DNA from: a candidate division FCPU426 bacterium | GTDB lineage: Bacteria; Oederibacteriota; Muellerivitia; Muellerivitales; Muellerivitaceae | Direction of reading: 5' to 3' | Assembly: GCA_963771075.1 (NCBI GenBank) | Contig: CAVYSE010000016.1 | Span: 23,582 to 87,581 of the forward strand | Length of the DNA: 64,000 bases | Part shown: piece after piece, positions 3,477-18,419 of the stretch | Layout of the letters: every line of letters starts with the position of its first letter | Position numbering within the stretch: the first letter of the stretch is position 1 | The notes under the pieces: generated by a model | Database searches by the model: none | What the model was told of the DNA's origin: nothing | Seen by the model: the letters and a program-made list of their open reading frames with translations, nothing else | Position numbers and translations under genes: made by a program

Positions 3477-4739
3477 CTATTCCCCCGACAGCAGTTTTTC
3501 CCAGATCGCCTCGTTCAACAGCACCCGTTTGAACAAGTCCCGCTCATTCTCACTCGGGCTCAGGATTTCCGGCTGGACCGGAAAGGTCAGGATGTAACTG
3601 ACGCCCTTTCCACTGGTCCTCGCCTCGATCTTCCCCCCGTGATGGTAGGTGATAAAGAAGCAGGTCATCAGCGCCAACCCCACTTCATGGGGGTTACCAC
3701 TGCGGACGTAAAAGGGGTCGAAGACCGATCGAAGGGCTTCGGAAGGGATACCCGGTCCCGAATCCGATACCGTTATTTCCACTTCCTGGGGCAGGTCCCC
3801 TCCCCCTAGGGCCCGGCCCGCAATAGTCACCACCCCGCCCGTCGGCGTGCTCGCCAGTTCTTCCTGAAGCAGCATCTCAAAGAGCTTGTGGAACTTGGGG
3901 CCGTCCACGTACAGGAAGGGGAGGGTATCCGGCAAATGGTCCTCGAACTTGATCTTCTTTTGGGCGTATGCGTCCTTTAATTTCCCGAAGGCTTCCTGCA
4001 CGACCGCGTTGGGCCTCAACCGGTTTGGGAATTGAAAGGAGGGTTTTTCCGAGCTTTCCCCCAGGTCACTCAGGAGGTTGACGACCTTGTCCATCTGGCC
4101 CTGCACCTTGACGTAATATTCCTTCCAAAAATCGGGGTTGCGGAGCTGTTCCAGGTCCAGGTTTTCCTCCCTCAGCTTCCGTGGGGCGAGGTCCAGGAAG
4201 GTCTTAACCGCCACCATGGAATTACGGATATGGTGCCCCAAACCGGCGGCCAGGATTCCCAGGCTGAGGATGCGGTCCGTGATCATGACCTGCTGTAAGA
4301 CCGACATTTTTTCCCGCAAAAGCTGGTCCCGCTCGGCTTGGACCATGAAAAATTCCAATCCGCGCTTGAGGGTCACTTCCAAGAGGGGGATGTCCCAGGG
4401 CTTGCTGATGTACTTGTAGATGGCCCCGGTATTAACCGATTCGATCGCGATCTCCAGGTCCGAGTAGGCCGTCACCAGGATCCTCACGATCTGGGGCTTC
4501 AAGAGGCGGGCTTTTTCCAAAAGCTGGATTCCCTTTTCCCCCGGCATCCGCTGGTCCGTCATCAGGATGGCGATCTGGTCGCGGTGCTTGCGCAGGAGGA
4601 AATAACCCTCCTCGGCGTTAGCGGCGGTCAGGACCGCGAACTTTTCCCCGAAGGCCTGGCCGAAGTATTTCAGCGATTTCTCCTCGTCATCCACGTAGAG
4701 GATGTAGAACTTCTTGTAATTGTAGTAGTCAATCGACAT
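3477..4739 (-). CDS. PhcR-like response regulator: N-terminal REC plus histidine-kinase-like (HisKA/HATPase) output domain
   Basis: REC (YVDDE, TDQRMPG, VTAY, SKPW) followed by GHHIRN H-box and DSGPG/FDPF boxes; last gene of a phcB-like operon. Confidence 0.75.
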   Translation of the reverse strand: MSIDYYNYKKFYILYVDDEEKSLKYFGQAFGEKFAVLTAANAEEGYFLLRKHRDQIAILMTDQRMPGEKGIQLLEKARLLKPQIVRILVTAYSDLEIAIESVNTGAIYKYISKPWDIPLLEVTLKRGLEFFMVQAERDQLLREKMSVLQQVMITDRILSLGILAAGLGHHIRNSMVAVKTFLDLAPRKLREENLDLEQLRNPDFWKEYYVKVQGQMDKVVNLLSDLGESSEKPSFQFPNRLRPNAVVQEAFGKLKDAYAQKKIKFEDHLPDTLPFLYVDGPKFHKLFEMLLQEELASTPTGGVVTIAGRALGGGDLPQEVEITVSDSGPGIPSEALRSVFDPFYVRSGNPHEVGLALMTCFFITYHHGGKIEARTSGKGVSYILTFPVQPEILSPSENERDLFKRVLLNEAIWEKLLSGE

Positions 4740-7392
4740 AGGCCGCCCCTTTCGCCTCTTTCGAGGGGAACTCCAGGATAAACTCGGTAAACTTCCCCTT
4801 TTCGCTCTCCACCCTGATGCTCCCGCCCTGTTCCTGCAGGATGCGGAAACATATGCTCAAGCCCAATCCCATCCCTTTGCCCACGTCCTTCGTTGTGAAA
4901 AAAGGGTCGTAAATCTTGTCCAGGTCCGCCGGGGCGATCCCCACGCCGTTGTCCCGAACCCTGATCCGGACCTTCCCGTCCACCTGGCGGCTCGTGATCC
5001 CCAGCCGGGGTTCCTCGCCCTGGAATACCTTTTGCCGCAGGGCATCGGCGGAGTTTTGGATCAGGTTCACGAAAACCTGGACCAGCTTGTTCTGGTCGGC
5101 GAGGACCTGATGGCCTTCCGGCAGGTCGATCTCGACCTTGATCCCGTCCTTGATCTCATGGCTGACGAACCTCAGGGCGAAGGAGACCGCCTTCGCCACC
5201 TCGATCCAATCCTCGCTCCCCCCATGGGACGGATGGGTGAAGGTGCGCAGGTCGGACACGATGCGCTGGACCCGGCCAAGACCCTCCGTGATATCCGCCA
5301 GGGTTTCCAAGTAGGGGGCCCGGTCCTCTTCCGGAAGGCGATCTTTTTTCCCCTTCAAGAGGTAAAGGGCCTGGAGGGAATAATTGAGCGGATTGTTGAT
5401 CTCATGAATAATACCGGCGCTGAGGCGGCCGAGGGAAGCCATCTTTTCATTTTGGACCAGTTGTCCCTCCGTTTCTTTCAACTGCTCAAGTGACGTTTCC
5501 AGTGCACTTTTTTGGAGAGCGAGGTCGCGCTGATATTGGTGGGATTCGATCAGGTTCTTGACACGCACATGCAGTTCGGAAGTGGAGAAGGGTTTGGTGA
5601 GAAAGTCGTTCGCTCCGGCGTCCAGGGCGGCGTATTTGGTTTCCTCGTCGGCCCGGGCCGTGAGGAGAACCACCGGGATGGACTGGGTAGAGACCTGGCC
5701 CTTTAATTCGCGGCAGGCTTCGATGCCGTCTTTTTCGGGCATCATCATGTCCAGGAGGACTAGGTCGGGAAGATACTGGCGCCCCTTTTCCACCGCCTGG
5801 TTGCCGTTCACCGCCTCCAGCACCTCGTATTGCTTGGAAAGCTGGGCCTTGAGAAAACGCAGCATATCCGGCTCATCGTCCGCCACCAGTATTTTCTTTT
5901 TGCCCCGCTTCCCGAAAACATCCGGACGGAGGGTTTCGGACAAGGGGTTCAGGGTTGGGAAAAGCTCGGCCCGGCGGTAAAGCTTGGTCAGCCATTCTTC
6001 CTGTTCTTCTTCCGGATCGGGGCCTGCTGGAATTTTCGCCAATTCCGCTGGGAGAGGCGATTCCTTTGCTTCCTCATAAGGCAGGTCCACCGTCATGAGG
6101 GTGCCCACCCCGATCTCGCTCTCGGCGGTGACCTTCCCGCCCTGGGCCTCGGTCAGCTCCTTGACGAGCGCCAATCCGATCCCCGTACCTTGGTACTTGC
6201 GCTGGGCCGAGGAATCGGCCTGCCAAAAGCGGTCGAATATCAGCGGCAGGTTCTCCTTGGAAATGCCCATGCCGGTATCCTTGATCTTTAACAGGAGCCT
6301 CGCCCCCTCCCGTTCCAGGGTCAATTCCACCTTCCCCCCAGCCGGGGTGAACTTCAGGGCGTTGAAGAGTAGGTTTAGGATGATCTTTTCCATCTTACCC
6401 CGGTCCAACATCACGACACCCAGCGGAGGTTGGACCCAGGCGGTCAAGGCCACCCTTTTGTCCCTTGCCGTGCCTTGAATGGACTGGGCCAAGCCCTTCA
6501 CGAAGGATTCCAGTGCCAGGGGCTCCTTGTGGGTTTCCATGCGGCCTGATTCCAGCTTGGCTAGGTCCAAAAGGTCGTTGATGAGTTTCAAAAGGCGCAT
6601 GGCGTTGTTTTCCATGATCCCCAGGGTGTCCCGGGATTCCTCGTCCAGCAGGTGCGATTTCTGTCGCCTCAGGGACTGGAGGGGGGAAATCAGGAGGGTC
6701 AGGGGAGTCCGTAGCTCGTGGCTGATATTGGCGAAGAACCGGCTTTTCATCTGGTCCAGTTCGATCAGCTTGCGGTTGGATTCTTCCAATTGTTTCTGGC
6801 TTTGATCCAATTCGTACCGGTTCGCGAATTCCCGCACCCGGATATTGTTGGTGAAATAACTGGCGAAGGTGGCGAAGAGGGCCGTGGAAAACAAAAAGTA
6901 CAGGTTATTGGAGAAGATGCCCAGGAGAGATATGTTCCCATGGAACAGGCAGGCAGCCAGGTAAAAGGCAATCGAAACGACCGAAACAATCATGGTTTCC
7001 TGGTAGGTCCAAAGGAATGCGATGCACATGGCCAGTAAAACCAGGTTATAACCGGCATAGTAGGGCGACACGAACCCGTCGGTGGAATAGATCATCCATG
7101 AAAAAACCGCCTGGGGGATCAAAGGCAAAATGAGCATCAGCAGACGGTAGGACTGGCCCCCCCACCGGGTGTAAAAAAGGGCGAATAGGGCCAGGGCGAG
7201 AAGCGCGGAGAGAAGCCGCAGTTTAAGAAAATAAGAAAAACACTGGGGATAAATGTTGATGTCTAAAAAGGCGCCCGCCGGCATGGCGAAGAAAACGAAC
7301 CAACAGGCTATTTTGTTCAAGCGGATCCTTTCCCGCTTGTTGTAAACCTCGAAGGCCCGTTCAATTTCCGGGGGTAGGATTGTTTTAGCCAT
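4729..7392 (-). CDS. Membrane-bound hybrid sensor kinase, PhcS-like position (TM sensor-HisKA-HATPase-REC-HisKA-HATPase)
   Basis: About 6 TM helices, SHELRTPL, NALKFT/DTGMG/GTGIGL, REC (DDE, DMMMP, KPF), second HEINNPL, DNGVG, GMGLGL; start taken at MAKTIL, overlapping the upstream stop. Confidence 0.85.
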   Translation of the reverse strand: MAKTILPPEIERAFEVYNKRERIRLNKIACWFVFFAMPAGAFLDINIYPQCFSYFLKLRLLSALLALALFALFYTRWGGQSYRLLMLILPLIPQAVFSWMIYSTDGFVSPYYAGYNLVLLAMCIAFLWTYQETMIVSVVSIAFYLAACLFHGNISLLGIFSNNLYFLFSTALFATFASYFTNNIRVREFANRYELDQSQKQLEESNRKLIELDQMKSRFFANISHELRTPLTLLISPLQSLRRQKSHLLDEESRDTLGIMENNAMRLLKLINDLLDLAKLESGRMETHKEPLALESFVKGLAQSIQGTARDKRVALTAWVQPPLGVVMLDRGKMEKIILNLLFNALKFTPAGGKVELTLEREGARLLLKIKDTGMGISKENLPLIFDRFWQADSSAQRKYQGTGIGLALVKELTEAQGGKVTAESEIGVGTLMTVDLPYEEAKESPLPAELAKIPAGPDPEEEQEEWLTKLYRRAELFPTLNPLSETLRPDVFGKRGKKKILVADDEPDMLRFLKAQLSKQYEVLEAVNGNQAVEKGRQYLPDLVLLDMMMPEKDGIEACRELKGQVSTQSIPVVLLTARADEETKYAALDAGANDFLTKPFSTSELHVRVKNLIESHQYQRDLALQKSALETSLEQLKETEGQLVQNEKMASLGRLSAGIIHEINNPLNYSLQALYLLKGKKDRLPEEDRAPYLETLADITEGLGRVQRIVSDLRTFTHPSHGGSEDWIEVAKAVSFALRFVSHEIKDGIKVEIDLPEGHQVLADQNKLVQVFVNLIQNSADALRQKVFQGEEPRLGITSRQVDGKVRIRVRDNGVGIAPADLDKIYDPFFTTKDVGKGMGLGLSICFRILQEQGGSIRVESEKGKFTEFILEFPSKEAKGAAYVD

Positions 7393-8944
7393 TTTGATTT
7401 TCGTCCATTTCCGTGAAGACCTTCGGGAAAATTCCCAGTCCATGATGGACGGCCACACCCAGGATACCACCCACGAGAGCCCCCGTGATGCCGTGGTTGT
7501 AAACATCCGTGCCAACCAAAGCCAGGCCTTTCACGGGGGTCCTGGGCCCCAGGGATTTCAAAGCATACCTGCGGGGGACCGCTGGAAAACCGTAAATTCC
7601 GCCTTTCCGGTGCCCGGTGAAATGCTCGATGGAAAGGGGTGTGGAAAGCTCGGCGTATTTCACTTCCGAACGGAACCCGGGAATCCGCTTTTCCACGAAA
7701 TCCAACAGGCTCTCGGCGATTGTTTTCTTTAACGCGTCATAGCCGGGGCCCCGGTTCATCCATCTTCCCTTTTTCCATTCCTCGAAAACCTCATAGTCCA
7801 TCGCGGTGATAATTTCAGCCGTTGGTTTTGGGGCCGTGGGGTCTTTCAGGCCGGGGAAGGAGAGGTAGCAGAAAGACGGTTTACCCTCCGCCAATTCATT
7901 CCTCCGGTCCCATATGGAATCCTGGTCGATCCCGTCGTAAATCCAGAAGTTCTGCCCATGTACGCCCAGGTGGGCGCAATCGGATTTCAACCCCAGGTAC
8001 AAGATCACCACGCTGAAGGGCGACGCCAAGGTTATTTCCCTCAATTCCTCCGGGGCCAGGGTTCCCTCCGGGAGAAGGTCGCGGTAGGTGGCCCCGGCGC
8101 CGATATTCGAATAGATTTCGGGGGCCCTGATGATTTCGACACCCTTCCTGTTTTCCACCTGGACCCCGGTGGCCCTGCCCCCTTCCACCAAGACGCGGCT
8201 TACCCGGTTGCGAACTTTCAGTTCACCGCCCTTCTCCCGGACCAACCCGGCAACCGCCTGCGCGATCACGCGGGAGGATCCGACGGGATAATAGCCTCCC
8301 TCCAGGTAATGTTTGGCGTTGGCGGAATGCACACCGAAACTGGCTAATTTCGGCGGCAACCCGTAATCTCCCCATTGGAAAGCCAGGAGGCCTTTCAATT
8401 TCTCATCCTGGAAATGGGCGTTCAGGTAATCCCCGAAGGTCTGGCTGGCTAGCTCGCGGCATTTCTGGTAGGAAAAATTCGTTCCAAGCATTTTCGAGGA
8501 AGGAATATAGCGGCCGATCAGGTTTTCGGCGGTGAAAACCATGTCCCTGAAATACAGTTCAAGGTTTTCCGATTCGGGGGGGAAAAGACCTTTCAACTTT
8601 TGAAGGAAATTCTGGGCGCCGGAAGGAATATCCACCCGCATGTCCGGAAAGAGGACGGCCTCGAAAGGGTCCCTCATCTTGGCCCACTTCACCTGGTTTC
8701 CGGTGATGAAATCCATGGCGGACCTTAAGGGGCTACCGGGGTTCATTTCCCCCACGTAATGGAGCCCCACGTCCCATCGGTACCCGCCGGGTCGCTCGAA
8801 AGTATGGGTGAACCCTCCCAATTTGAAATGACTCTCCAGAACCAGAACCCGGTAGTTCTTGAGCCGGGCCAGCGCCGAGGCCGCGGTTAACCCGCCCATG
8901 CCCGAGCCGATGATGATGGCGTCATAGCCGTTTGGGTCCGCCAT
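7385..8944 (-). CDS. FAD/NAD(P)-dependent oxidoreductase, phytoene desaturase/retinol saturase/CrtISO (COG1233) family
   Basis: IIIGSGMGG Rossmann fold, GGFTHTF, WDVGLHYVG, GGYYPVG, STPLS and C-terminal G.D..HGITGA motifs. Confidence 0.85.
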   Translation of the reverse strand: MADPNGYDAIIIGSGMGGLTAASALARLKNYRVLVLESHFKLGGFTHTFERPGGYRWDVGLHYVGEMNPGSPLRSAMDFITGNQVKWAKMRDPFEAVLFPDMRVDIPSGAQNFLQKLKGLFPPESENLELYFRDMVFTAENLIGRYIPSSKMLGTNFSYQKCRELASQTFGDYLNAHFQDEKLKGLLAFQWGDYGLPPKLASFGVHSANAKHYLEGGYYPVGSSRVIAQAVAGLVREKGGELKVRNRVSRVLVEGGRATGVQVENRKGVEIIRAPEIYSNIGAGATYRDLLPEGTLAPEELREITLASPFSVVILYLGLKSDCAHLGVHGQNFWIYDGIDQDSIWDRRNELAEGKPSFCYLSFPGLKDPTAPKPTAEIITAMDYEVFEEWKKGRWMNRGPGYDALKKTIAESLLDFVEKRIPGFRSEVKYAELSTPLSIEHFTGHRKGGIYGFPAVPRRYALKSLGPRTPVKGLALVGTDVYNHGITGALVGGILGVAVHHGLGIFPKVFTEMDENQNG

Positions 8945-8946
8945 CC

Positions 8947-10386
8947 TCACTCCCCCCCTTTTCCACAGGCCTGGAGAGGCTTACGCACCTCGAGAAAGAC
9001 GTTCACGCCCGTGGCTTCCGTCATGCTGGCGCAGGATTCCGCGGGCGCCGCGTCGGGCTTCAGGGTGGCCATTTGGCCCCCATTCCGGTAGATCAAATGC
9101 CACTCCATGAAACTTTCCATGACGTTTTGGACGGGGTTGGAGGGCGTGACATTGGTCGCCAGCAAAAGGCCGCCGGGTTCCAACCTGTCGTAAAAATAAT
9201 TCATCATCCGTTTACAAATCCGGTCCTCCAGGTAATCAAACAATCCCGCGCAGTAGATCAGGTGGTAGGTTTTTCCCGGGAGTCCGGGAGGTGGGCTGAA
9301 GGATTCCTTGAGGATATGGTTCACCGATTTCTTGATGAGGCGGATCGACGTTTCCCTTTTGTGCAGGGTTTTCAGGTCATCCAACTTTCGGCTCGTGTGC
9401 TCCAGTGTCTCGTCGTTGAAATCCATCAGGTCGAATTCCGCGTGGTCGCTCAGGGGGGAGAGAGCGATGAATTCCTGGATCTCCTTCGCCGGCCCGCAAC
9501 CCATATCCAGGATTCGGATCTTCCTTTTTTCACGGACCGACCTTTCGGTTTCTTCTGTCAGGGTCTTTTTTAAGTGCTTGATGCGGTTTCGGTGGGCCTC
9601 GCAGGGCGGGGCGCTCAGGAAGAAGGTATTTAAAATTTTCGCGAAGAGGGACGATCCCTCAAAGGGTTCCCGCAGCATCATGTTCACCATCTCATAATCC
9701 CCGGCGTATCCCAGGGGTTTCTGGAAACTCCGGTAGACGAAGGGGGAGCAAAGGACCAGGGGATGGATCTGACGGCGGCTGTAGGAGCGGTGGATCAGGT
9801 GGAGATCCGCCGGGATTGCGGAGAGGGTCTGCTCGAACCGCTCGAACAGGGACCCCACCGCGGGCACGACCGAATCTTTTAATTCCAGGATCGCGTCTTT
9901 TTCGATGAGGGATCGGTCGGCGGATGGCTCCGACTGGATGCCTATTTCCACTTGTTCCAGCCAGCGCCGCATGTCCATTAGATAAGTCTGCATATCCGCG
10001 ATCACGACCTTCAAGTGATCGGAAACGTGGTGGATCTTTTCCCATTCCTTGAGGAAGGCGGAGAACTCATCCTTTAGCCTGTCCTTTTGGTGGATAGAGG
10101 AAAAGAGGTCGATATCCAGCCAGCTGTCCTCCAAAGTGCATTCGGAAATCAGAAGGATCCCGGTATTGACGAGGTTACTGACCACCGCCCGGCCCGAGTA
10201 AACCATCCGGTCATTCATGATGATCCTGAAGTCGGTCAGGACCTCGGATAATTGGACAATGCTGTAAGGGTTATAGACTTCAAAAACCACCGTATAGCGG
10301 GTGAGCCGAAGCAAGGTGGCGTGGAATTCCGTACCCTGGCTATTGCGGCAAACAAGGATGGTGTCTTTACTCGTGATAATAGCCAT
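8947..10386 (-). CDS. phcB: PhcB-like class I SAM-dependent methyltransferase (3-hydroxy fatty acid methyl ester signal synthase family)
   Basis: N-terminal RNSQG..EVYNPYSIVQLSEVL..GRAVVSNLVNTG segment, KPLGYAGDYEMVN, ILDMGCGPAKE SAM motif and YCAGLFDYL match my recollection of PhcB; 479 aa; followed by a sensor kinase and a REC-kinase as in phcBSR. Confidence 0.8.
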   Translation of the reverse strand: MAIITSKDTILVCRNSQGTEFHATLLRLTRYTVVFEVYNPYSIVQLSEVLTDFRIIMNDRMVYSGRAVVSNLVNTGILLISECTLEDSWLDIDLFSSIHQKDRLKDEFSAFLKEWEKIHHVSDHLKVVIADMQTYLMDMRRWLEQVEIGIQSEPSADRSLIEKDAILELKDSVVPAVGSLFERFEQTLSAIPADLHLIHRSYSRRQIHPLVLCSPFVYRSFQKPLGYAGDYEMVNMMLREPFEGSSLFAKILNTFFLSAPPCEAHRNRIKHLKKTLTEETERSVREKRKIRILDMGCGPAKEIQEFIALSPLSDHAEFDLMDFNDETLEHTSRKLDDLKTLHKRETSIRLIKKSVNHILKESFSPPPGLPGKTYHLIYCAGLFDYLEDRICKRMMNYFYDRLEPGGLLLATNVTPSNPVQNVMESFMEWHLIYRNGGQMATLKPDAAPAESCASMTEATGVNVFLEVRKPLQACGKGGE

Positions 10387-10458
10387 TGGCCACTTTCTTA
10401 TGAAAATTCCGCTTCATGCGTTCGGGTCATAAACTCCCAAGCTTAACGTCTTATTCCC

Positions 10459-11190
10459 CTAAAGGTTCAAGAGCGCTTCCTCACCCCAATCACAAAGAGG
10501 GTATTGGAGGTGATCGTGATCAGGGTTGTAGGCCACGAGGGCCATGCAGTATCCCTCCGGGTCCGGGTCCGGTACAAAAAACTCCCAAGGACCCAGGCGG
10601 GAGCGGCTTTGGATGGGCAGGGGGACCGTCAAACGGCGAAAGACGGAACCCAATCCGATCCCAAGCGCCTTCCCATAGGCCTCCTTCATCGTGAAGATCC
10701 TGAAAAAAAACAAGGGCTGGGACCCTGAAGGTTGGGTAAACAAGTATTCCTTTTCTTCAGGTGTAAAAAAACGCTCCGCGAGACGCCTCCAACCCGGCCG
10801 GGCCTGGGGATCGGCTTTTTCCACGTCGATACCGACCGGGGTCCAACCGACGGAACAGACCATCCTTCCTGCGGTGTGGGCGAGGTTGAATTGAAGGTTT
10901 GAGCCCGCCAGGGTTGGTTTACCCCTTGGGTTTCGGATAAACCTCAAGGAGGATTCCTCCTGGTGAAGATAACCCGCTAGGATCCGGCGAAGAAACAATC
11001 GGGACAATAGAAATTCCCTTCTCCGCTCATCCGGCCGGATAAGGGAATACTCAACCTGCTCCTCCCTGGGAAGGAGGCCCAATCCGCGCGATTTGGAACA
11101 CCCGGAATCATCCTCCCAGTCGAGGACATGAATGTGGATTTCGCCGACTCGAATCGCCTGGATCGTTTCCTCGCCGTGATTAACCAACAT
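10459..11190 (-). CDS. 4'-phosphopantetheinyl transferase, Sfp type
   Basis: GKP, FNLAHT, VGIDVE and FTMKEAYGKALGIGL motifs. Confidence 0.9.
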   Translation of the reverse strand: MLVNHGEETIQAIRVGEIHIHVLDWEDDSGCSKSRGLGLLPREEQVEYSLIRPDERRREFLLSRLFLRRILAGYLHQEESSLRFIRNPRGKPTLAGSNLQFNLAHTAGRMVCSVGWTPVGIDVEKADPQARPGWRRLAERFFTPEEKEYLFTQPSGSQPLFFFRIFTMKEAYGKALGIGLGSVFRRLTVPLPIQSRSRLGPWEFFVPDPDPEGYCMALVAYNPDHDHLQYPLCDWGEEALLNL

Positions 11191-11261
11191 CTAGCGTCCC
11201 TCCCGTTGCCCGCGACGGCTCACTCCCGAAGGACGGATTTTGGGGACCGACCCTTTCTTTC

Positions 11262-11981
11262 TCATCCGGCACCGCCGTCCAAAACGATCACGCCACCGTT
11301 CAAATAGTCCGGAGCCTCCCCCGCAAGGAAAAGAACAACCCGGGCGACCTCCTCGGGTCGGCAAAACCGGCGCAAGGGCACGGTTTGGAGAAGGACCTCC
11401 CTGGCCTGGGGCGTCATTTTTTCGATCATGGGCGTCTCGACCCCGCCGGGGGCCACCACATTGGCGGTCACGCCGTAGGGCCCCGATTCCTTGGCGAGGG
11501 CTTTGGTGAACCCGATCAGGCCAGCCTTGGAGGCGGAATAATTAGTCTGGCCGGGAAGGCCGTGCAGGCCGGAAACGGAGGAAAGGTTGATGATCCGCCC
11601 CTTTTTCTTTTTCATCATGTCCGTGGCGAACCGCCGCGTCAGGTGGAAGACTCCCTTGAGGTTGGTGTCCAAAACCCGCGACCAATCCTCGTCCGTCATG
11701 GCGAATAGGGGTTTGTCCCGGGTGATGCCCGCGTTGTTCACCAGCACGTCGATGTTCTTTTCTTCCCCCAGGACCTCTTTATAAAACCCGTCGCAGGCCT
11801 CCCGGTCCGCCACATCCAGCCGGTGGGCCTTTGCCTGTCCCGCGAAGCGGGTTTCCAGTTCCCGGGCCGCGGCCTCATTCGAAAGGAAGGTGAAATGCAC
11901 CCTCCAACCGGCGGAAGCGAAGGTTTCCACCATGCTTTTCCCGATCCCCGAGGACCCGCCCGACAGGACGATCTTCCTCAT
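11262..11981 (-). CDS. fabG: 3-oxoacyl-ACP reductase (FabG-like SDR)
   Basis: GGSSGIG, NNAGITRD, YSASKAG, DGG; true start MRKIVL overlaps the fabZ stop (ATGA). Confidence 0.9.
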   Translation of the reverse strand: MRKIVLSGGSSGIGKSMVETFASAGWRVHFTFLSNEAAARELETRFAGQAKAHRLDVADREACDGFYKEVLGEEKNIDVLVNNAGITRDKPLFAMTDEDWSRVLDTNLKGVFHLTRRFATDMMKKKKGRIINLSSVSGLHGLPGQTNYSASKAGLIGFTKALAKESGPYGVTANVVAPGGVETPMIEKMTPQAREVLLQTVPLRRFCRPEEVARVVLFLAGEAPDYLNGGVIVLDGGAG

Positions 11982-12445
11982 GATGTGGGAATTCTTAATT
12001 TGCCGAACAAAAGTTTCCCGGTCGCCGCCACTTCCCCGGCCACGTAGCACTTGCCCTCGACGATGCGGTTGGTGTCGGCTGTCTTGGTGATCCTCACGTG
12101 GGTTTCCAGCCGGTCGCCCGGGGTGATGGGCCTCATGAAATGGAAATCCAAAACCGCACCCATGACGTCGAATAAGCCCCCATGCCCTATTCCCTCGGCC
12201 TGTTCCGTCAGCCGGACCAGGATAGCGGCCGACTGGGCGAAGCATTCGATGGTCAGGACCCCTGGGAAGATGGGGGCTTCCGGAAAGTGGCCCTGGAAAT
12301 GGATTTCGTTGGCCGTGATGTTCTTGATCGCCTTCAGGGTTCCCCCCTTTTCCCACGACAGGACCCGGTCGACCATCAGCATCGGAAAGCGCTGTTTCAG
12401 AAAATCCAGCACCGGCAGGTCCGGGTTTAAGGCCTTATCCGGCAT
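11978..12445 (-). CDS. fabZ: 3-hydroxyacyl-ACP dehydratase (FabZ-like)
   Basis: RFPMLMVDRV and FQGHFPEAPIFPGVLTIE..AQ motifs. Confidence 0.9.
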   Translation of the reverse strand: MPDKALNPDLPVLDFLKQRFPMLMVDRVLSWEKGGTLKAIKNITANEIHFQGHFPEAPIFPGVLTIECFAQSAAILVRLTEQAEGIGHGGLFDVMGAVLDFHFMRPITPGDRLETHVRITKTADTNRIVEGKCYVAGEVAATGKLLFGKLRIPTS

Positions 12446-12683
12446 GGAGGAGCCCTTCGATCACCTTGGAGGCCTTCTCCACCGTGATCATGTTCACCAA
12501 CAGGTCCGGCTCGATCATGACGTTGAATTCGGTTTCCAACTTGGCCAAAAATTCCAGGGCCCTCATCGAGTCGTATTTGGCCATCTCGGGAAACGGCTTG
12601 TCATCCGTCACCGATACCTCCGGGACATCGAACATTCCGGAGATGATTCCCTTGATCTTTCCCTTGATTTCCGTCGTTTCCAT
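12435..12683 (-). CDS. Acyl carrier protein
   Basis: 82 aa acidic protein with DSM (Ppant Ser) and LETEFNV.I; lies within the fab cluster. Confidence 0.88.
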   Translation of the reverse strand: METTEIKGKIKGIISGMFDVPEVSVTDDKPFPEMAKYDSMRALEFLAKLETEFNVMIEPDLLVNMITVEKASKVIEGLLHAG

Positions 12684-13577
12684 TTAACCCTTTCCTTTCC
12701 CGGCGCTTAATTTCACCAGCGTCACCCTGCGCTCCTCGGCCGCCATCGAAGCGACAACACCGGAAGGCCTGCCTGAGGATAAAAAATCCTCCAATGCCTT
12801 CCTCCCTCCCATGCCCTGCTCCCGGGCGGGATCGCCGGCGGCCCCACGTGAAATTCCATCCGGAAGGAATGGACCCAGGGGGGAGCCTTCGGGAAGGGCC
12901 GCCCACTCCACCCCTCCCCAAAAATCGTCCAACCGGCTCCGGAAAGGAAGGGGAATGGTTCCATCCCGCTTCCATTGGATGGAAAGGAAGTCTTCCACGC
13001 CAAAAGAGGTGCCGCTTGATTCCTCCCCCGTCCCCAGAAATAGGATGGCGCCATCCCCGACCGGGGCGGAAGCCCGCAGGAAATTGGGTATTTTTTCCGC
13101 CGCTCCCACCAGGCACCGTTGAAAAAGCCCACTGTTCAAGCCCTCCCATGCGAAACCCAGGGCGTCCAGGAGCGAGGTCCCGCCGTTGGTCAGGGTGACA
13201 TTCGGCCCCTTGAGCTGGAGCCAAATGCCGATACGGCTTCCCGCCGCGTTGGCAACGGTATTGGGAAAATCCATGGGATTGACGGTGTTGGGGCCTTTGA
13301 GGAGGGCCTGCTGATCGAACGCCACGGAGCTTTCCAAGGCCCCGAAGCCGGTACCCAGAACCACCGCACAATGGCGGCGGGCATCCGCTTCAAGGGGTTG
13401 GCTTGCGCTGTCCAGCGCTTTCTTTGCCGCCATACCCGCCATCAGGGAGAGGGGGTCGATGTATTTGGGGGAAAGCTCGGGGAATAATTCCTGGAAGAGA
13501 ATCGGGAGGGATTCCTCCCCCGTCCCATTCACTCCCAAAAGGATTTCCCCCTTGCCCAAGATGAACAATGGTCGCAA
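12684..13577 (-). CDS. Beta-ketoacyl synthase N-terminal-like protein lacking the catalytic Cys (chain-length-factor-like)
   Basis: KGP..VNPMDFPNTVANAAGS..I..LKGPN motif; TNGGTS where an active KS has Cys; no His-His; follows the KS. Confidence 0.75.
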   Translation of the reverse strand: MRPLFILGKGEILLGVNGTGEESLPILFQELFPELSPKYIDPLSLMAGMAAKKALDSASQPLEADARRHCAVVLGTGFGALESSVAFDQQALLKGPNTVNPMDFPNTVANAAGSRIGIWLQLKGPNVTLTNGGTSLLDALGFAWEGLNSGLFQRCLVGAAEKIPNFLRASAPVGDGAILFLGTGEESSGTSFGVEDFLSIQWKRDGTIPLPFRSRLDDFWGGVEWAALPEGSPLGPFLPDGISRGAAGDPAREQGMGGRKALEDFLSSGRPSGVVASMAAEERRVTLVKLSAGKGKG

Positions 13578-13586
13578 CGAAGCCCC

Positions 13587-14798
13587 CTATTTCTTCAGGA
13601 CTAGGCAGGAGGTGTTCCCGCCGAAGGCAAAGGAGTTCGAAACAGCGACCTTGCCCGTGAAGGGTCTGGATCGGTTTGGCACGCAGTCCTCGACGCAGTC
13701 CGCGTCGGGGTTCTCCCAATTGATGGTGGGAAGCAGCGTGCCCCGTTCCAGGCTCAGGCAGGTCATGACCGCCTCAATGGCGCTGGCGGCCCCCATGGTA
13801 TGGCCGATCATGGATTTGATGGAAGAAACGGGAATGGCGCGATCAGCGCCGAATATTTTTTTGATGGCGATGGATTCGGTCTTGTCATTGGCGGGGGTAC
13901 CCGTTCCGTGGGCCGAGATGTAGTCTACTTCACGGGGTGTGAGTCGGGCATCGTTCAACGCCTTTTGCAAGCTGTCAAAGGCGCCCTCCCCCTCGGGATG
14001 GGGGGCGGTCATGTGGTGGGCATCCATTCCCAAGCCGTAACCTGCGACCTCGCAATAGATATGGGCTCCCCGGGTCAAGGCCCTCCCCTTTTCTTCCAGG
14101 AGGAGGACTCCAACACCCTCGCTCACCACCAACCCTTTCCGGTTCTTCGAAAAGGGCCGGCACTTGTCCGGGGTCAGGGAAAGTAGCCGGTTGAACCCGG
14201 TGAAGGCGATCCGGGAAAAGGGATCCACCCCCCCGCACAGGGCCAGGTCCACCTGCCCCTGTCTGATTTGCTCCAGCCCCCAGCCAATGGCGTAATTGCC
14301 CGAGGCGCAGGCGTTGGAAAAGACCATCGACTTCCCGCCCAACCCCAAAAAATCCAGCACCGAGAAAGCAATATGGGATGCTTGCATTTTATGGAAACTT
14401 TCCGGATTCATTTCCCCCGACCGGCCATTGGCCCTGAGCTCGGATAATTTCTCAACGAGCTGGACCTCGCCCATCGTGGTTCCAAAAAAACTTCCCACCC
14501 GGGCTGTTTCCATTTGAATGGCGGGACCTCCCCCGTCCTGTAACGCCTCTTGCGCGGCAAGGATGGCCAATACGGAAGATCGCTCATACCTTCCTTGATT
14601 TTCCTGTTCAAAGGTTTTCAAGCGCCGGAGGTCCTTGATCTCACCCCCGATCTTGACCCGGTAAGGCGTCGGATCAAAGACTCGAACGGGGCCGATCCCC
14701 GATTGGCCTTCCACCATGGCTTTCCAAACGGCGGGGACCCCGTCCCCAAGGGGGCAAATGACCCCTAAACCAGTTACCACCGCTTCTCTGTGATTCAA
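13587..14798 (-). CDS. Beta-ketoacyl-ACP synthase (FabF-like / type II KS)
   Basis: VVTGLG, NACASG (Cys), SAHGTGT (His), KSMIGH (His), SNSFAFGG; probable TTG start after a GGGAGG RBS. Confidence 0.92.
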   Translation of the reverse strand: MNHREAVVTGLGVICPLGDGVPAVWKAMVEGQSGIGPVRVFDPTPYRVKIGGEIKDLRRLKTFEQENQGRYERSSVLAILAAQEALQDGGGPAIQMETARVGSFFGTTMGEVQLVEKLSELRANGRSGEMNPESFHKMQASHIAFSVLDFLGLGGKSMVFSNACASGNYAIGWGLEQIRQGQVDLALCGGVDPFSRIAFTGFNRLLSLTPDKCRPFSKNRKGLVVSEGVGVLLLEEKGRALTRGAHIYCEVAGYGLGMDAHHMTAPHPEGEGAFDSLQKALNDARLTPREVDYISAHGTGTPANDKTESIAIKKIFGADRAIPVSSIKSMIGHTMGAASAIEAVMTCLSLERGTLLPTINWENPDADCVEDCVPNRSRPFTGKVAVSNSFAFGGNTSCLVLKK

Positions 14799-15145
14799 AA
14801 TAAATCCCTCCCGTCTACTTCCCGCTGCAACGGTAACAATTGACTTGATCAGGATTATCGATAAATACCGAGGGGTTATTCTTTTAACTTCATAAGAACG
14901 ATTCATGAACGCCAATTTTGTTGCGCTTCTTTGATTATATGCGCGAATGCTCCGACCGGATAAATCAAGCGTGTAAAACGATATTTATAAAGCATTGATT
15001 AGAAAAAACTGTTGTATTTTTGTCCGATTTTGGCGGGTGGAAGCCTACAGGAAATAAAAAGGAAAACTTAAACCCTTCGGGGAGAAATCTGGAAAACCCG
15101 GAGGATCAAGGACCCATTCCCCGTTGAAAAGCCGCACGATAAATG

Positions 15146-15768
15146 TTAAATGGATTTGGATTTAGCGGGGCGCTTCGTCTGCCCGGAAAGTTGGATGTAT
15201 CGTTGGAGTGTTCTCGGGCTTATTTCCAAGAGGGAGGCTAACGCCTCCCGTGGAAGATCGGTTTTATTGAGAATCAATACCAAAAACTGTTTAAAAAACA
15301 ACCTTCGGGCCTGGGCCAAGCTGGTCTTTTGGTCGATACACCGTTTGACCTGCAAATTAACGAGCGAGGACAGTGGAGCGGGTCTTTTTTCCCAACGCGG
15401 TTCAAGGGATAAGAAAGCCTCCAGTTTGGACGCGAGGAGTTTCTCCTCCATCTGGCAGGAGAGGATATCGGCGAAACCCGATTTGATGGCCGAAACAACA
15501 AGTGATAATTGGGGGGGTAAACCAACGCGACCTTGACGCTCTGGGGCTGTAAATGGAATATCGTCTGGATGTCCCCCATCCCATCGTCGGATGGAAATTC
15601 CCATTGCAAAAGGAGCAGATCAAAGTTTTGGATGTTGGCCGCTTCCAACGCTTCGTCGGAACTTTGAACCAATTGGATTTCGCCCAAGGGACGACAAGCC
15701 GCTTCAAGTTTTATTTGAACCGTGTGATCGGTATGGAAAATGAGCATCTTTTTATTGGAATAGACCAC
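15146..15768 (-). pseudogene. Atypical REC + C-terminal HTH regulator, split by a frameshift at a G7 run (15511-15517)
   Basis: The first frame gives a REC-like N-terminus (FDLLLLQW); the second gives VSAIKSGFADIL (REC end) and LASLLEISPRTLQR (Fis-like HTH); one extra C joins them. Confidence 0.6.
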
Positions 15769-15859
15769 TGGAATGCCTCCCATCACCCAATTCAAAGCTA
15801 CCAGAAAACCGGGTGGAAAGGTATCGTTACGGCCCTGACCCGGGCAGAATTAACATCTT

Positions 15860-16999
15860 TTAAACGGCGCCGGACAAAAAGAGGGCAGAAAAGGAGGTTC
15901 CATGACCCCTTTTGCTGGATACCTTTAAGAGGCCGCCGTAATTGACCATGATCCGGTGGCAAATGGCCAAACCCAATCCCGTGCCACCCATGCGGGTGGT
16001 GAAAAAGGGATCGAATATCTTTTGGATCTCCCTGGGGTCGATCCCCTTCCCGTCGTCTTTCACCGTCAGGCAGATGCCGGGATTTCCCCTTTTTCCCTTC
16101 GGGGCAGCCCGCTTGGCGGAGACCTGAATCGTACCTTTTTCGCCCACGGCTGAAATTGCGTTCTTGAGCAAATTCACTACCAAACTCTCGAATTGGACGG
16201 GGTCCACCTTTAGTTTCAAGCCGGGGTCGACCCTTAACTTGATCTGGATTTTTTTTCGACCCAAGCTGGGCCTGATCAATTGGTGGATCTGGCCAAGAGT
16301 TTCCTCCAGACAAACCACGTCGGGTGCCGGACTACCGCCCCTGGCGAACCTCAGACTTTGGTCCGTCAACAACTCAAGCCGGTCCAGTTCCTTGAGCATC
16401 AGGGATTGGAACGAATCCATGAATGACGAGTCGTTCTTTTTGATCGGCAACAGTTGCACTAGGGTGCTCAAGGCCGTTAGGGGATTTCGAATCTCGTGGA
16501 ACACCCCCGCGGAAAGAAAGCCAAGGGAAGATTGGCGGTCGGTCCTTTCGAGCATTTTCCAAAGTCGGCGATTCTCAAGCAGGTTGCCCAGAACCCAACC
16601 CAGGAATGGCAGGAAAGCCTCCGCCGGAATGGAACTCGAGGACCCGGGATTAACCTCCCCTCCCGCGGCGATACAACCGACCCACTCCTTTCCCCGAAAG
16701 ACCGGATAGAGGCTGGACCCCGGGCCCAATCCGGGGTGAATTCCCCGGTTCAGCTTGAGGGTATTCCTCATTCGCCGGTAACTAGCGTGGGTAGGCTTGA
16801 TCCGCACCTCATTTCCCAGCCAATTCCCCGTTAAGCCCTCGTCTGTTTTTTGGAGGTAGCCGAACGGAGGAAGATGAAACCGCTCCTCGAGGTAATGGCT
16901 CAAGGGAGTAAGATCCAGTTGGTTTTCGCCCTCCCCGTTCGGTGAAAATTCCAGGGGTGACGGAATTTCGGTGCCTCGGCGGCTCTTGACCTTTCCCAT
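15860..16999 (-). CDS. Cytoplasmic sensor histidine kinase (NtrB-like)
   Basis: HEIRNPL, NLLKNA, DDGKG, FDPFFTT, GTGLGL; degenerate GAF-like N-terminus. Confidence 0.88.
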   Translation of the reverse strand: MGKVKSRRGTEIPSPLEFSPNGEGENQLDLTPLSHYLEERFHLPPFGYLQKTDEGLTGNWLGNEVRIKPTHASYRRMRNTLKLNRGIHPGLGPGSSLYPVFRGKEWVGCIAAGGEVNPGSSSSIPAEAFLPFLGWVLGNLLENRRLWKMLERTDRQSSLGFLSAGVFHEIRNPLTALSTLVQLLPIKKNDSSFMDSFQSLMLKELDRLELLTDQSLRFARGGSPAPDVVCLEETLGQIHQLIRPSLGRKKIQIKLRVDPGLKLKVDPVQFESLVVNLLKNAISAVGEKGTIQVSAKRAAPKGKRGNPGICLTVKDDGKGIDPREIQKIFDPFFTTRMGGTGLGLAICHRIMVNYGGLLKVSSKRGHGTSFSALFLSGAV

Positions 17000-17006
17000 G
17001 GAAACG

Positions 17007-18419
17007 CTATAGGCCCTTGAACCCGATCCCACGCGCGCGCCTTTGTATCACGATTTGGCGGTAATCCTCCTCAAGGTTTAATTCCCTCAATTTCCAAATC
17101 AAGGTGTTACGATGAAGGCCCAAGCTGGCCGCGGTGCGGGTTTGGTTCCCGCGGGTGTGTTCCAGGATCTTTCGAACATACTGCCGTTCAAACTGGTTGC
17201 GTACCCTTTTCAATGATATTTTCGGATCCTTCCGCGAAGGCGCCAGGTCGATCTGCTTCAGTAAAAGGTCGATGGGAATGTCTTCCAAACCCAGCTCCTC
17301 CTTTCCCGCGAAAAAAGCCATCATCTCGACGATGGATTCCATTTCGAGCAGGTTACCCGGCCAGGGATATTGGGTTAAATACTGGAGGGCGTCCTTATGG
17401 AAGGCCTTGGCGCCCGTCCGGGTCCTTTGACGGACATTTTTCAAGCATTGGAGGATCAATTCTTGAACGTCCCCCTTCCTTTCCCGAAGGGAGGGAATTT
17501 CGAGGGCGGCCCCGTTTAAGTGTTGGAAGAACTCCCGGCGGAGCGGATGCGAACCGGTTGGCAGGGGTTGGCGGGTTTCGATGGAAGCAATCACACGGAC
17601 GTCCAAATCCTGGGCCGCCTTGCTGTTCAAACGGATGAACTTTTTTTCCCGGAGGACTTTGGATAATTTAGTTTGGATGGGATCCGGGATAAACTCGGCA
17701 TGATCCAGGAAAAGGGTCCCATCATTCGCGAAATCCAATTTCCCGATCTGGGATTCTTTTTTGGGGGAATCCGGCCCCTCTAGCCCGAAAAGCTCACCGT
17801 CCCAATGGTTCCTGATAACGGAGGAAGCATTCAGGCGGATGAAGGGGCCCTTCGACCGGGCGCTCTGGCGGTGTATCTCCCGGGCGATAGCCTCCTGCCC
17901 GCATCCCGGCTCCCCCGTCATCAGGACGGGGACATCCTCCCGGGCGATTCCCTCGATTTTTTTCCTCAAAACCTTGATCTCGGGGCTGGACCCCAGAAAA
18001 ACAAAATGGGAATCATCTTGATGATCCTGCTTCAAATAACGGATTTCCTTTTCCAGGTTCCGTTTTCCCAAGGCCCGTTGGATGACCGCGTATAGCTCTT
18101 CCAACTTGTAGGGTTTGGTCAAGTAATCATAGGCCCCATTTTTCATGCTCTCCAAACCCGTATCCGAATCTTTCAGGGCCGTTACCATGATGACATCCAA
18201 CCCCTCGTCCCTGCGCTTGACCTGCTTGAGAAGATCCAGGCCGGAGCCGTCGGGAAGGAGAATATCGAGCAGGTAAAGGTCGTATTCCCTTTGCTTGATC
18301 GCCTTTAATCCGGACTTGAAATCCTCCGCGAAGGTCAGGTCGTACATTTCCTTAAGTGCGAGACGGAAGGACTCCCGAACGCTTTCTTCATCATCCACGA
18401 TTAAGAGATGGGCTTTCAA
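17007..18419 (-). CDS. NtrC-family response regulator (REC-AAA-Fis HTH) with degenerate AAA+ motifs
   Basis: Intact REC; YPWPGN; GNQTRTAASLGLHRNTL HTH; no GAFTGA. Confidence 0.88.
   Translation of the reverse strand: MKAHLLIVDDEESVRESFRLALKEMYDLTFAEDFKSGLKAIKQREYDLYLLDILLPDGSGLDLLKQVKRRDEGLDVIMVTALKDSDTGLESMKNGAYDYLTKPYKLEELYAVIQRALGKRNLEKEIRYLKQDHQDDSHFVFLGSSPEIKVLRKKIEGIAREDVPVLMTGEPGCGQEAIAREIHRQSARSKGPFIRLNASSVIRNHWDGELFGLEGPDSPKKESQIGKLDFANDGTLFLDHAEFIPDPIQTKLSKVLREKKFIRLNSKAAQDLDVRVIASIETRQPLPTGSHPLRREFFQHLNGAALEIPSLRERKGDVQELILQCLKNVRQRTRTGAKAFHKDALQYLTQYPWPGNLLEMESIVEMMAFFAGKEELGLEDIPIDLLLKQIDLAPSRKDPKISLKRVRNQFERQYVRKILEHTRGNQTRTAASLGLHRNTLIWKLRELNLEEDYRQIVIQRRARGIGFKGL

Follow-up and report, generated by a model that had tools for sequence, protein, structure and literature searches.

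A probable Phc-type quorum-sensing locus joined to a type II synthase cassette in an uncultured bacterial phylum

The best-described relatives of the system treated here are the phcBSRQ loci of the Ralstonia solanacearum complex and Cupriavidus, whose signals are methyl 3-hydroxypalmitate (3-OH PAME) and methyl 3-hydroxymyristate (3-OH MAME). In Ralstonia the signal chain is supplied by primary fatty acid synthesis (FAS) according to PMC4549310, as an earlier note on the present DNA had also held, and PhcB and PhcS group by signal type while PhcR and PhcQ group by phylotype (PMC8578825); balancing selection on phcB and phcS has been described, and the locus likened to agr (PMC6580516). Dedicated signal-biosynthesis genes linked to sensing are on record in the Dickeya vfm locus (PMC7912708) and in the DarABC/PauR and photopyrone/PluR systems of Photorhabdus (PMC13220807). 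Here we analyzed a 64,000-nucleotide stretch (hereafter the window) of contig CAVYSE010000016.1, from a candidate division FCPU426 bacterium, and describe a Phc-type locus in it. Like phcBSRQ, this locus has a PhcB-type enzyme, a PhcS-type multi-pass kinase and a REC protein lacking a DNA-binding domain. Unlike phcBSRQ, it carries a dedicated cassette of ketosynthase (KS), chain-length factor (CLF), acyl carrier protein (ACP), FabZ, FabG and phosphopantetheinyl transferase (PPTase) genes, so that the operon of a host with its own housekeeping FAS holds six further synthesis genes, where the Ralstonia operon has no fab genes and draws on primary FAS. Its sensor moreover carries an extra kinase-REC module, one downstream REC protein with a putative pseudokinase part stands where Ralstonia has PhcR and PhcQ, some of its tailoring genes are optional, and it belongs to another phylum. 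By its genes, then, the locus appears to work like Phc quorum sensing but is not a standard member. We consider it fairly probable that this Phc-type locus methylates a private acyl chain, probably an unsaturated one, and senses the product as a distinct autoinducer, with a specificity that would lie in a swappable block.

The whole unit covers ~11 kb and comprises ten genes, all on the minus strand, which were assigned with Pfam and NCBIfam and are given in the order in which they are read:

13587..14798, minus strand: KS, 403 aa, Cys-His-His intact (Pfam PF00109/PF02801)
12684..13577, minus strand: truncated CLF, 297 aa, without the catalytic Cys (PDB and AlphaFold2 fold matches)
12435..12683, minus strand: dedicated ACP, 82 aa (PF00550)
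11978..12445, minus strand: FabZ-type dehydratase (NF000582 above cut-off)
11262..11981, minus strand: FabG-type ketoreductase (NF009466 above cut-off)
10459..11190, minus strand: Sfp-type PPTase (PF01648, PF22624)
8947..10386, minus strand: PhcB-type S-adenosylmethionine (SAM) methyltransferase, 479 aa (similarity to PhcB-type proteins)
7385..8944 (start at 8944 or 8950), minus strand: COG1233 FAD oxidoreductase, retinol-saturase/phytoene-dehydrogenase-like by the names of its homologs
4729..7392, minus strand: PhcS-type hybrid sensor kinase, 887 aa (matches to PhcS)
3477..4739, minus strand: REC protein with a degenerate kinase-like C-terminus, PhcQ/PhcR-like, 420 aa

The earlier note had described ten co-oriented, mostly overlapping or abutting genes in this order, and this description holds: seven of the nine junctions overlap or are at most 9 bp wide (9, 0, -11, -4, 71, 72, 2, -8 and -11 bp in gene order), and the two wider ones (71 and 72 bp) flank the PPTase gene. 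The 12 other genomes with a cassette all show the same KS-CLF-ACP-FabZ order, so the arrangement is not due to chance, and the locus is real and coherent. We infer that transcription of all ten genes starts in the promoter region of the host's phcB and gives a single RNA; a promoter and terminator scan was uninformative (2 promoter and 24 terminator sites, where 4.6 and 20.5 were expected).

The assignment of the methyltransferase as PhcB-like, also made in the earlier note, is well supported. Over 462 aa, the protein shares 38% identity (E 2e-120) with the Cupriavidus taiwanensis protein P0301, which belongs to a sequence cluster with members named PhcB, and is the sole match in its genome for five betaproteobacterial PhcB-type queries; its homologs carry the name "3-hydroxypalmitic acid methyl ester biosynthesis protein". 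The reference proteins for PhcB, PhcS and the regulators were those of Cupriavidus, Janthinobacterium and Paraburkholderia rather than R. solanacearum's own, and the tree of the methyltransferase with the PhcB queries was built without a distant outgroup. An AlphaFold2 model (pLDDT 85) shows an N-terminal beta domain, a helical domain and a class I methyltransferase domain; a sequence search of the PDB gave no significant match, and a fold search returned generic class I methyltransferases only (best 3ocj, Z 19.5, root-mean-square deviation 3.0, 251 residues aligned). The motifs KPLGYAGDY and YCAGLxDY are kept in both the PhcB and the cassette-type groups. As a lead only, the N-terminal domain may be PilZ-like, with an Atlas match of high confidence to a family found on 27% of the members.

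The kinase is a membrane hybrid kinase, as had been noted, with the refinement that it holds two kinase cores (TM-HisKA-HATPase-REC-HisKA-HATPase, where TM is the transmembrane part), the membrane sensor occupying approximately aa 1-200. This sensor is ~30-31% identical to the PhcS membrane domain (E 3e-24), and the protein is the best match of PhcS in the genome. The second kinase core is 36-39% identical to the PhcS kinase (J. lividum PhcS and a P. graminis homolog) and closer to it than the first, so the protein resembles a PhcS extended by one kinase-REC module. In two loci from other lineages (L096 and L116) the kinase after phcB matches the second core only, as PhcS does, suggesting that the first kinase-REC module is an insert. 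One gene separates phcB from the kinase in the window, and none does in most relatives.

The last gene had been called a REC-kinase regulator, and it is a REC protein with a kinase-like C-terminus; its N-terminus is nearer to a PhcQ-sized protein than this name implied and its kinase part is degenerate. Over aa 13-157 it shares 49% identity with a 344-aa protein, the product of the fourth gene in a phc-like operon of Paraburkholderia graminis, and its C-terminus matches HATPase but not the Pfam HisKA family, the ATPase domain being degenerate. The N-box is a motif with an established role in such ATPase domains; its Asn is apparently replaced by Glu here, and the regulator may be a pseudokinase. 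Compared with the unnamed 344-aa regulator and with the sizes described for PhcQ (336-337 aa) and PhcR (368-374 aa) of the R. solanacearum species complex (PMC8578825), the regulator leans to PhcQ by sequence and to PhcR by architecture. The one LysR substrate domain of the genome, of the regulator family to which the Ralstonia output regulator PhcA belongs, lies on another contig.

The cassette keeps its catalytic motifs, whose roles are well established: the KS has C164, H297 and H333, and the motifs of the ACP (DSM), FabZ, FabG (YxxxK) and PPTase are intact as well. The CLF has Gly at the position of the KS Cys and matches the N-terminal KS domain only, such that an active KS adjoins a homolog lacking the catalytic triad, as is typical of type II KS/CLF pairs. 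Ketoreductase (KR) and dehydratase (DH) genes accompany the pair and its own ACP, with no enoyl reductase gene in the cluster, a trait of highly reducing type II systems. No second copy of the ACP was found in the genome by tblastn at E 1e-5. A cluster that we take to be the housekeeping plsX-fabH-fabD-fabG-fabF-rnc, naming its genes from their sequences, lies elsewhere in the genome, a housekeeping lpxC-fabZ on contig C20 and a FabI-like gene on contig C11, outside the cassette. The cassette genes are thus an additional set, and the possibility that they are the housekeeping FAS itself was rejected. In type II logic, a KR and a DH acting with no enoyl reductase give an unsaturated or polyene chain, and since this is the composition of the cassette its product chain is probably unsaturated. 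A second small cluster, of a FabG-like gene and a KS split over two frames (G000:C4:1854-5716), lies beside what are presumably biotin-synthesis-like genes.

The nearest characterized relatives of the KS/CLF pair were then sought among known synthases. The KS matches the PDB chain 9s5h_B best (E 1e-113, versus E 1e-84 for FabF) and is 37% identical to the housekeeping FabF of the same genome. The best PDB sequence match of the CLF is 9s5h_C (E 3e-19), and the top fold matches of its AlphaFold2 model (pLDDT 75) are chains from the KS/CLF entries for AntDE and ishigamide. Entries 9S5H and 9S5I are probably the amxFabF2/amxFabF-mut heterodimer of the anammox ladderane Cluster I (bioRxiv 10.64898/2026.05.19.726425), because the residue numbering fits and because the KS of an ACP-FabZ-KS-CLF-PDH-B12 radical SAM locus matches 9S5H at E 5e-250. 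The same preprint, which does not itself cite the entry code, states that this heterodimer starts chains by decarboxylating malonyl-ACP and favors C6-C8 probes over C16. Like Cluster I, the window has 9S5H as the best PDB match for both KS and CLF, a KS 44-47% identical to, and grouped with, Cluster-I-type loci (support 100/99 among 26 rows), a CLF that keeps the F-P-N-T-V tunnel segment, and an ACP, a FabZ and a COG1233 gene. Unlike Cluster I, it has FabG and PPTase genes and no B12 radical SAM gene among its ten (one is present in L143), its CLF is 297 aa long versus ~412 aa, and its oxidoreductase shares 24-28% identity over the full length with the Cluster I enzyme, as compared with 42-50% for other homologs. 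We therefore rejected the label of a ladderane cluster on account of the missing radical SAM gene and the nonorthologous oxidoreductase. In a profile search, uncharacterized CLFs of 320-370 aa outscored those of ~410 aa, and the anammox pair is probably the nearest characterized KS/CLF pair and not an established sister. Two non-anammox KS-CLF-FabG-oxidoreductase clusters (L193 and L195) have a KS that is sister to the Cluster-I-type KS.

The cassette also resembles highly reducing type II polyketide synthases (ishigamide Iga11/12 and aryl polyene ApeO/C) in its KS with inactive CLF, ACP, KR and DH, no enoyl reductase being present. Aryl polyene clusters hold an aryl starter ligase, a second KS and glycosyl or acyl transfer genes, and none of these occurs among the ten genes. 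Thus, unlike both of these synthases, the window lacks a starter-loading ligase and transfer enzymes, and its cassette is coupled to a signal methyltransferase and a receptor. The earlier note was aware of no account of such a combined biosynthesis and sensing operon: in the titles and abstract openings of the open-access literature we likewise met none that pairs phcB with a KS/CLF cassette, but synthesis and sensing in one locus does have a precedent in Dickeya vfm (PMC7912708). The vfm and Photorhabdus systems differ in chemistry and receptors, and their descriptions mention no PhcB or PhcS.

To follow the locus among relatives, we took all 99 genomes of the host phylum as defined in GTDB, 32 of which make up the host order; the host's place in this separate phylum bears out the suspicion that it is no betaproteobacterium. 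The methyltransferase gene (phcB) is present in 26 of the 99, and the cassette, recognized by a full-length short CLF, in 13, every one with phcB; none of the 73 genomes lacking phcB has it. Six genomes with partial CLF matches of 26-33% were counted as FabF-type and not as cassette. In 12 of the 13, the cassette lies directly upstream on the phcB contig, and in the remaining one (G001) the contigs break inside the PPTase gene. The fab genes are thus conserved with the methyltransferase in 13 of 13 cassette genomes, as the earlier note would have it. The remaining 13 phcB-bearing genomes hold the phc core with no cassette. A scan of metagenomes yielded 13 short-CLF loci among the best 80 listed, some of which overlap with the metagenome-assembled genomes (MAGs; L131 is G023), and each shows consecutive cassette genes as far as it reaches; of the six that extend past the PPTase gene, five continue into phcB and one into the oxidoreductase gene. 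One MAG (G075) has two phcB copies (L226 and L273), one with the cassette and the other, with none, a contig-end fragment behind a nuclease gene; duplication, transfer in progress and strain mixture are all possible.

Beyond the phylum, a GTDB scan gave at least 591 confirmed phcB-type stretches, and among the best 80 of these, 79 lie outside the family of the window, mostly in Verrucomicrobiota. Of these 79 loci, 77 have a matching kinase after the methyltransferase (the other two end at a contig edge), none has a cassette, and 48 have FadL genes. The phc core is thus widespread with no cassette, mostly in Verrucomicrobiota, and the FadL neighbors fit a fatty-acid-derived ligand. A gene for a FadL/TodX outer-membrane channel lies at most 3.5 kb upstream in 33 of the 60 nonfamily loci with enough sequence (L046-L124), and in none of 21 loci of the window's order. 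Three loci in Binatota or "delta proteobacterium" records (L072, L080 and L089) all have FadL near phcB; two of them (L072 and L080) also have FabF-like KS genes (36-37%) of a separate clade, possibly an independent synthase recruitment, and L080 a 7TM-GAF kinase.

The central evidence comes from the trees of the separate parts. Each of three genera (g3, g4 and g6) has genomes with and without the cassette, yet the cassette genomes form one clade on the methyltransferase tree (13 of 26 rows, support 100/99) and one on that of the sensor membrane domain (11 of 24 rows, 99/97; G001 and G003 had too little sequence to be included). Both clades persist under a mixture model with four metagenome loci and five outgroups added (99 and 97), and three of the four methyltransferase quarters give a single clade, the first quarter needing two changes. 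Elsewhere the cassette is scattered, requiring seven changes on rpoB (a tree of 27 rows, some of them incomplete, that lacks G007 and G076), five on the regulator, seven on kinase 1, six on REC and six on kinase 2. Approximately unbiased (AU) tests, run without G025, reject a single cassette clade on the regulator (p 6e-73), kinase 2 (p 1e-12) and rpoB (p 1.3e-6), the last of which led us to reject a single gain in one sublineage followed by vertical descent. Between the sister genomes G008, with the cassette, and G073, without it, the kinase is 36-52% identical over aa 1-200 and 82-92% identical over aa 201-600, except for one linker window at 55%. Distances of the methyltransferase correlate with those of the sensor (0.70) and hardly with those of kinase 1 (0.10), which correlate with rpoB instead (0.69). 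Finally, the four cassettes with an extra short-chain dehydrogenase/reductase (SDR) gene come from three genera and are a clade by themselves on each of the two trees (97/98 and 100/100), and sensor positions 123/133/173, mostly G/N/I in cassette-free genomes and PhcS, are C/T/F in cassette genomes. Cassette, methyltransferase and sensor domain therefore share one history, which supports a synthase-sensor link beyond gene order; as in Ralstonia, synthase and sensor co-vary and the downstream regulators follow the host. Because these parts form one clade while rpoB, the kinase cores and the regulator scatter, the block appears to move as one unit, between the host's own promoter region and the kinase core, either gained by transfer or lost by replacement.

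The DNA at the upstream border agrees with this picture. For two cassette genomes (G008 and G006), the sequence upstream of the KS gene aligns with the phcB upstream region of the respective cassette-free sister (G073 and G022), with scores of 75 and 100 against shuffle maxima of 42, whereas the DNA just before their own phcB has no alignment to the sisters' phcB upstream region, indicating that the cassette sits between the host promoter region and phcB. A third pair (G074/G073) scored 30, within the shuffle range. The gene immediately preceding phcB encodes a PD-(D/E)XK nuclease in 7 of 13 cassette-free genomes, and such a gene immediately precedes KS in 4 of 13 cassette genomes. The region also holds one further feature:

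15011..15024, minus strand: upstream motif in the presumed promoter region, conserved among relatives

This 14-base AT-rich motif, allowing at most two mismatches, lies upstream of KS in 9 of 17 cases, of cassette-free phcB in 4 of 13 and of cassette phcB in 0 of 17 (searched over 200 versus 330 bp, with ~0.1 expected per set from shuffles and a consensus built from the same sequences), and is possibly the binding site of a regulator. About eight further strong copies in the genome are intergenic and stand beside unrelated genes, and a regulon built on the motif was therefore rejected.

The genes that vary between cassettes were examined as well. The oxidoreductase, whose homologs are named all-trans-retinol 13,14-reductase or phytoene dehydrogenase-like and which could thus remove or add a double bond, has orthologs in 6 of the 32 order genomes, all six cassette-bearing, is missing from 7 of the 13 cassettes and stands before the methyltransferase in five relatives; it is by these counts an optional tailoring gene. 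Its role as the determinant of specificity was not supported, its tree needing four changes among five rows relative to the sensor. The extra SDR is found in 4 of 13 cassettes, and a single cassette (G011, L025:6687-7478; 1 of 13 cassettes and 1 of 32 order genomes) has a thioesterase (PF00975) in place of FabG, which fits a free-acid route for PhcB. This locus also has a 1.7-kb insert of small open reading frames between methyltransferase and kinase.

Taken together, the reading we favor runs as follows. The PPTase would prime the private ACP, and the KS/CLF pair would start and extend the chain from malonyl units, with the CLF setting its length and malonyl transfer borrowed from the housekeeping FabD. 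FabG would reduce and FabZ dehydrate the growing chain, giving an enoate or polyene, perhaps 3-hydroxylated, unless its double bonds are removed by the host FabI or the optional flavoprotein. The PhcB-type enzyme would then methylate the carboxyl group to yield a diffusible methyl ester, which the co-inherited membrane domain would bind, passing the signal to the host's unchanged phosphorelay of kinase, REC, kinase and PhcQ/R-like protein, with a sigma-54-type regulator rather than PhcA as its probable output.

Several points weigh against this reading. The identity of the methyltransferase to the tested PhcB relatives is low (36-39%). The substrate of PhcB is given as 3-hydroxypalmitoyl-ACP in PMC4549310 and as the cognate free fatty acids in a review (PMC7912708), and 12 of 13 cassettes have no thioesterase, which is at odds with the latter route. 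The oxidoreductase does not track the sensor. The relatives are MAGs of 65-99% completeness, and the 26 genomes behind the co-inheritance are kin from one order rather than independent samples. Even in genomes that lack the cassette, methyltransferase and sensor vary together (Mantel 0.59), so that linkage alone could carry the cassette along, and within cassette genomes KS and sensor distances (0.15, p 0.17) as well as CLF and sensor distances (0.23, p 0.07) are weakly and not significantly correlated.

The last two observations favor the strongest of the alternatives, by which the cassette is under quorum control and its product is an unrelated lipid or polyene, while the PhcB enzyme methylates a housekeeping 3-hydroxy fatty acid, the cassette being carried by its position between promoter and phcB. 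The 71-72 bp gaps on either side of the PPTase gene would suit such a hitchhiker, as would a core that functions with no cassette in 13 of 26 phylum genomes and in all 79 of the best-scoring outside loci. We nevertheless consider it unlikely, given that the cassette accompanies all 13 phcB alleles of the cassette clade and none of the 13 others, that cassette-specific residues occur in both enzyme and sensor, and that the SDR clade is nested in both trees. More doubtful still is that the methylated polyene or fatty ester serves mainly as a pigment, antimicrobial or membrane component, with the kinase in feedback control or sensing something else: the KS/CLF relatives are indeed polyene-type and ladderane-cluster synthases, the operon has no exporter and its tailoring genes (SDR, oxidoreductase, thioesterase) vary, but it is the receptor membrane domain and not the kinase cores that follows the cassette, and the ten genes include no transporter, glycosyltransferase or starter ligase. 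That the product is no carboxyl methyl ester, through C- or hydroxyl-methylation of an ACP-bound intermediate or because the ligand is a free acid or ketone, appears very improbable in view of the full-length PhcB similarity and shared motifs, even with C-, O- and S-methyltransferases as fold neighbors, no clear carboxyl specialist on top and a cassette (G011) that lacks FabG.

Beyond the favored reading of a private chain sensed by a Phc-type locus, a broader version is plausible but tentative. Here the mobile block would be a whole miniature polyketide/fatty-acid line, its KS/CLF akin to the ladderane-cluster pair, with its methyltransferase and matching receptor domain, set on a fixed phosphorelay. 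Plug-in SDR, thioesterase or saturase-like flavoprotein genes would add new dialects, and a polyunsaturated methyl ester not described before would serve as the signal.

One neighboring group of genes lies upstream of the unit:

15146..18419, minus strand: NtrC-like regulator, kinase and frameshifted REC-like/helix-turn-helix (HTH) gene (Pfam), outside the ten-gene finding

Of 25 relatives, 7 have at least one member of this trio on either side of the phc locus or cassette, no more than ~10 kb away, making the trio a probable associated output module. Comparison with a 193-aa homolog in L040 shows that its REC-like/HTH gene (15146-15795) changes frame near 15502-15514, where seven C stand in a row; an intact paralog lies on contig C3, and the frameshift is either an assembly error or phase variation.

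These findings place the phc core in an uncultured phylum, in Verrucomicrobiota and in Binatota, methyl-ester quorum sensing having been studied in Ralstonia and Cupriavidus. The KS/CLF pair would offer a small and tractable relative of the ladderane-cluster enzymes. The locus may represent a new signal class, for which sister pairs with and without the cassette provide natural controls and which can be tested as a unit in E. coli. The joint swap of synthase, signal enzyme and sensing part suggests a new chemical signal "dialect", and signal specificity may thus diversify by replacing the chain supply together with the receptor binding domain.

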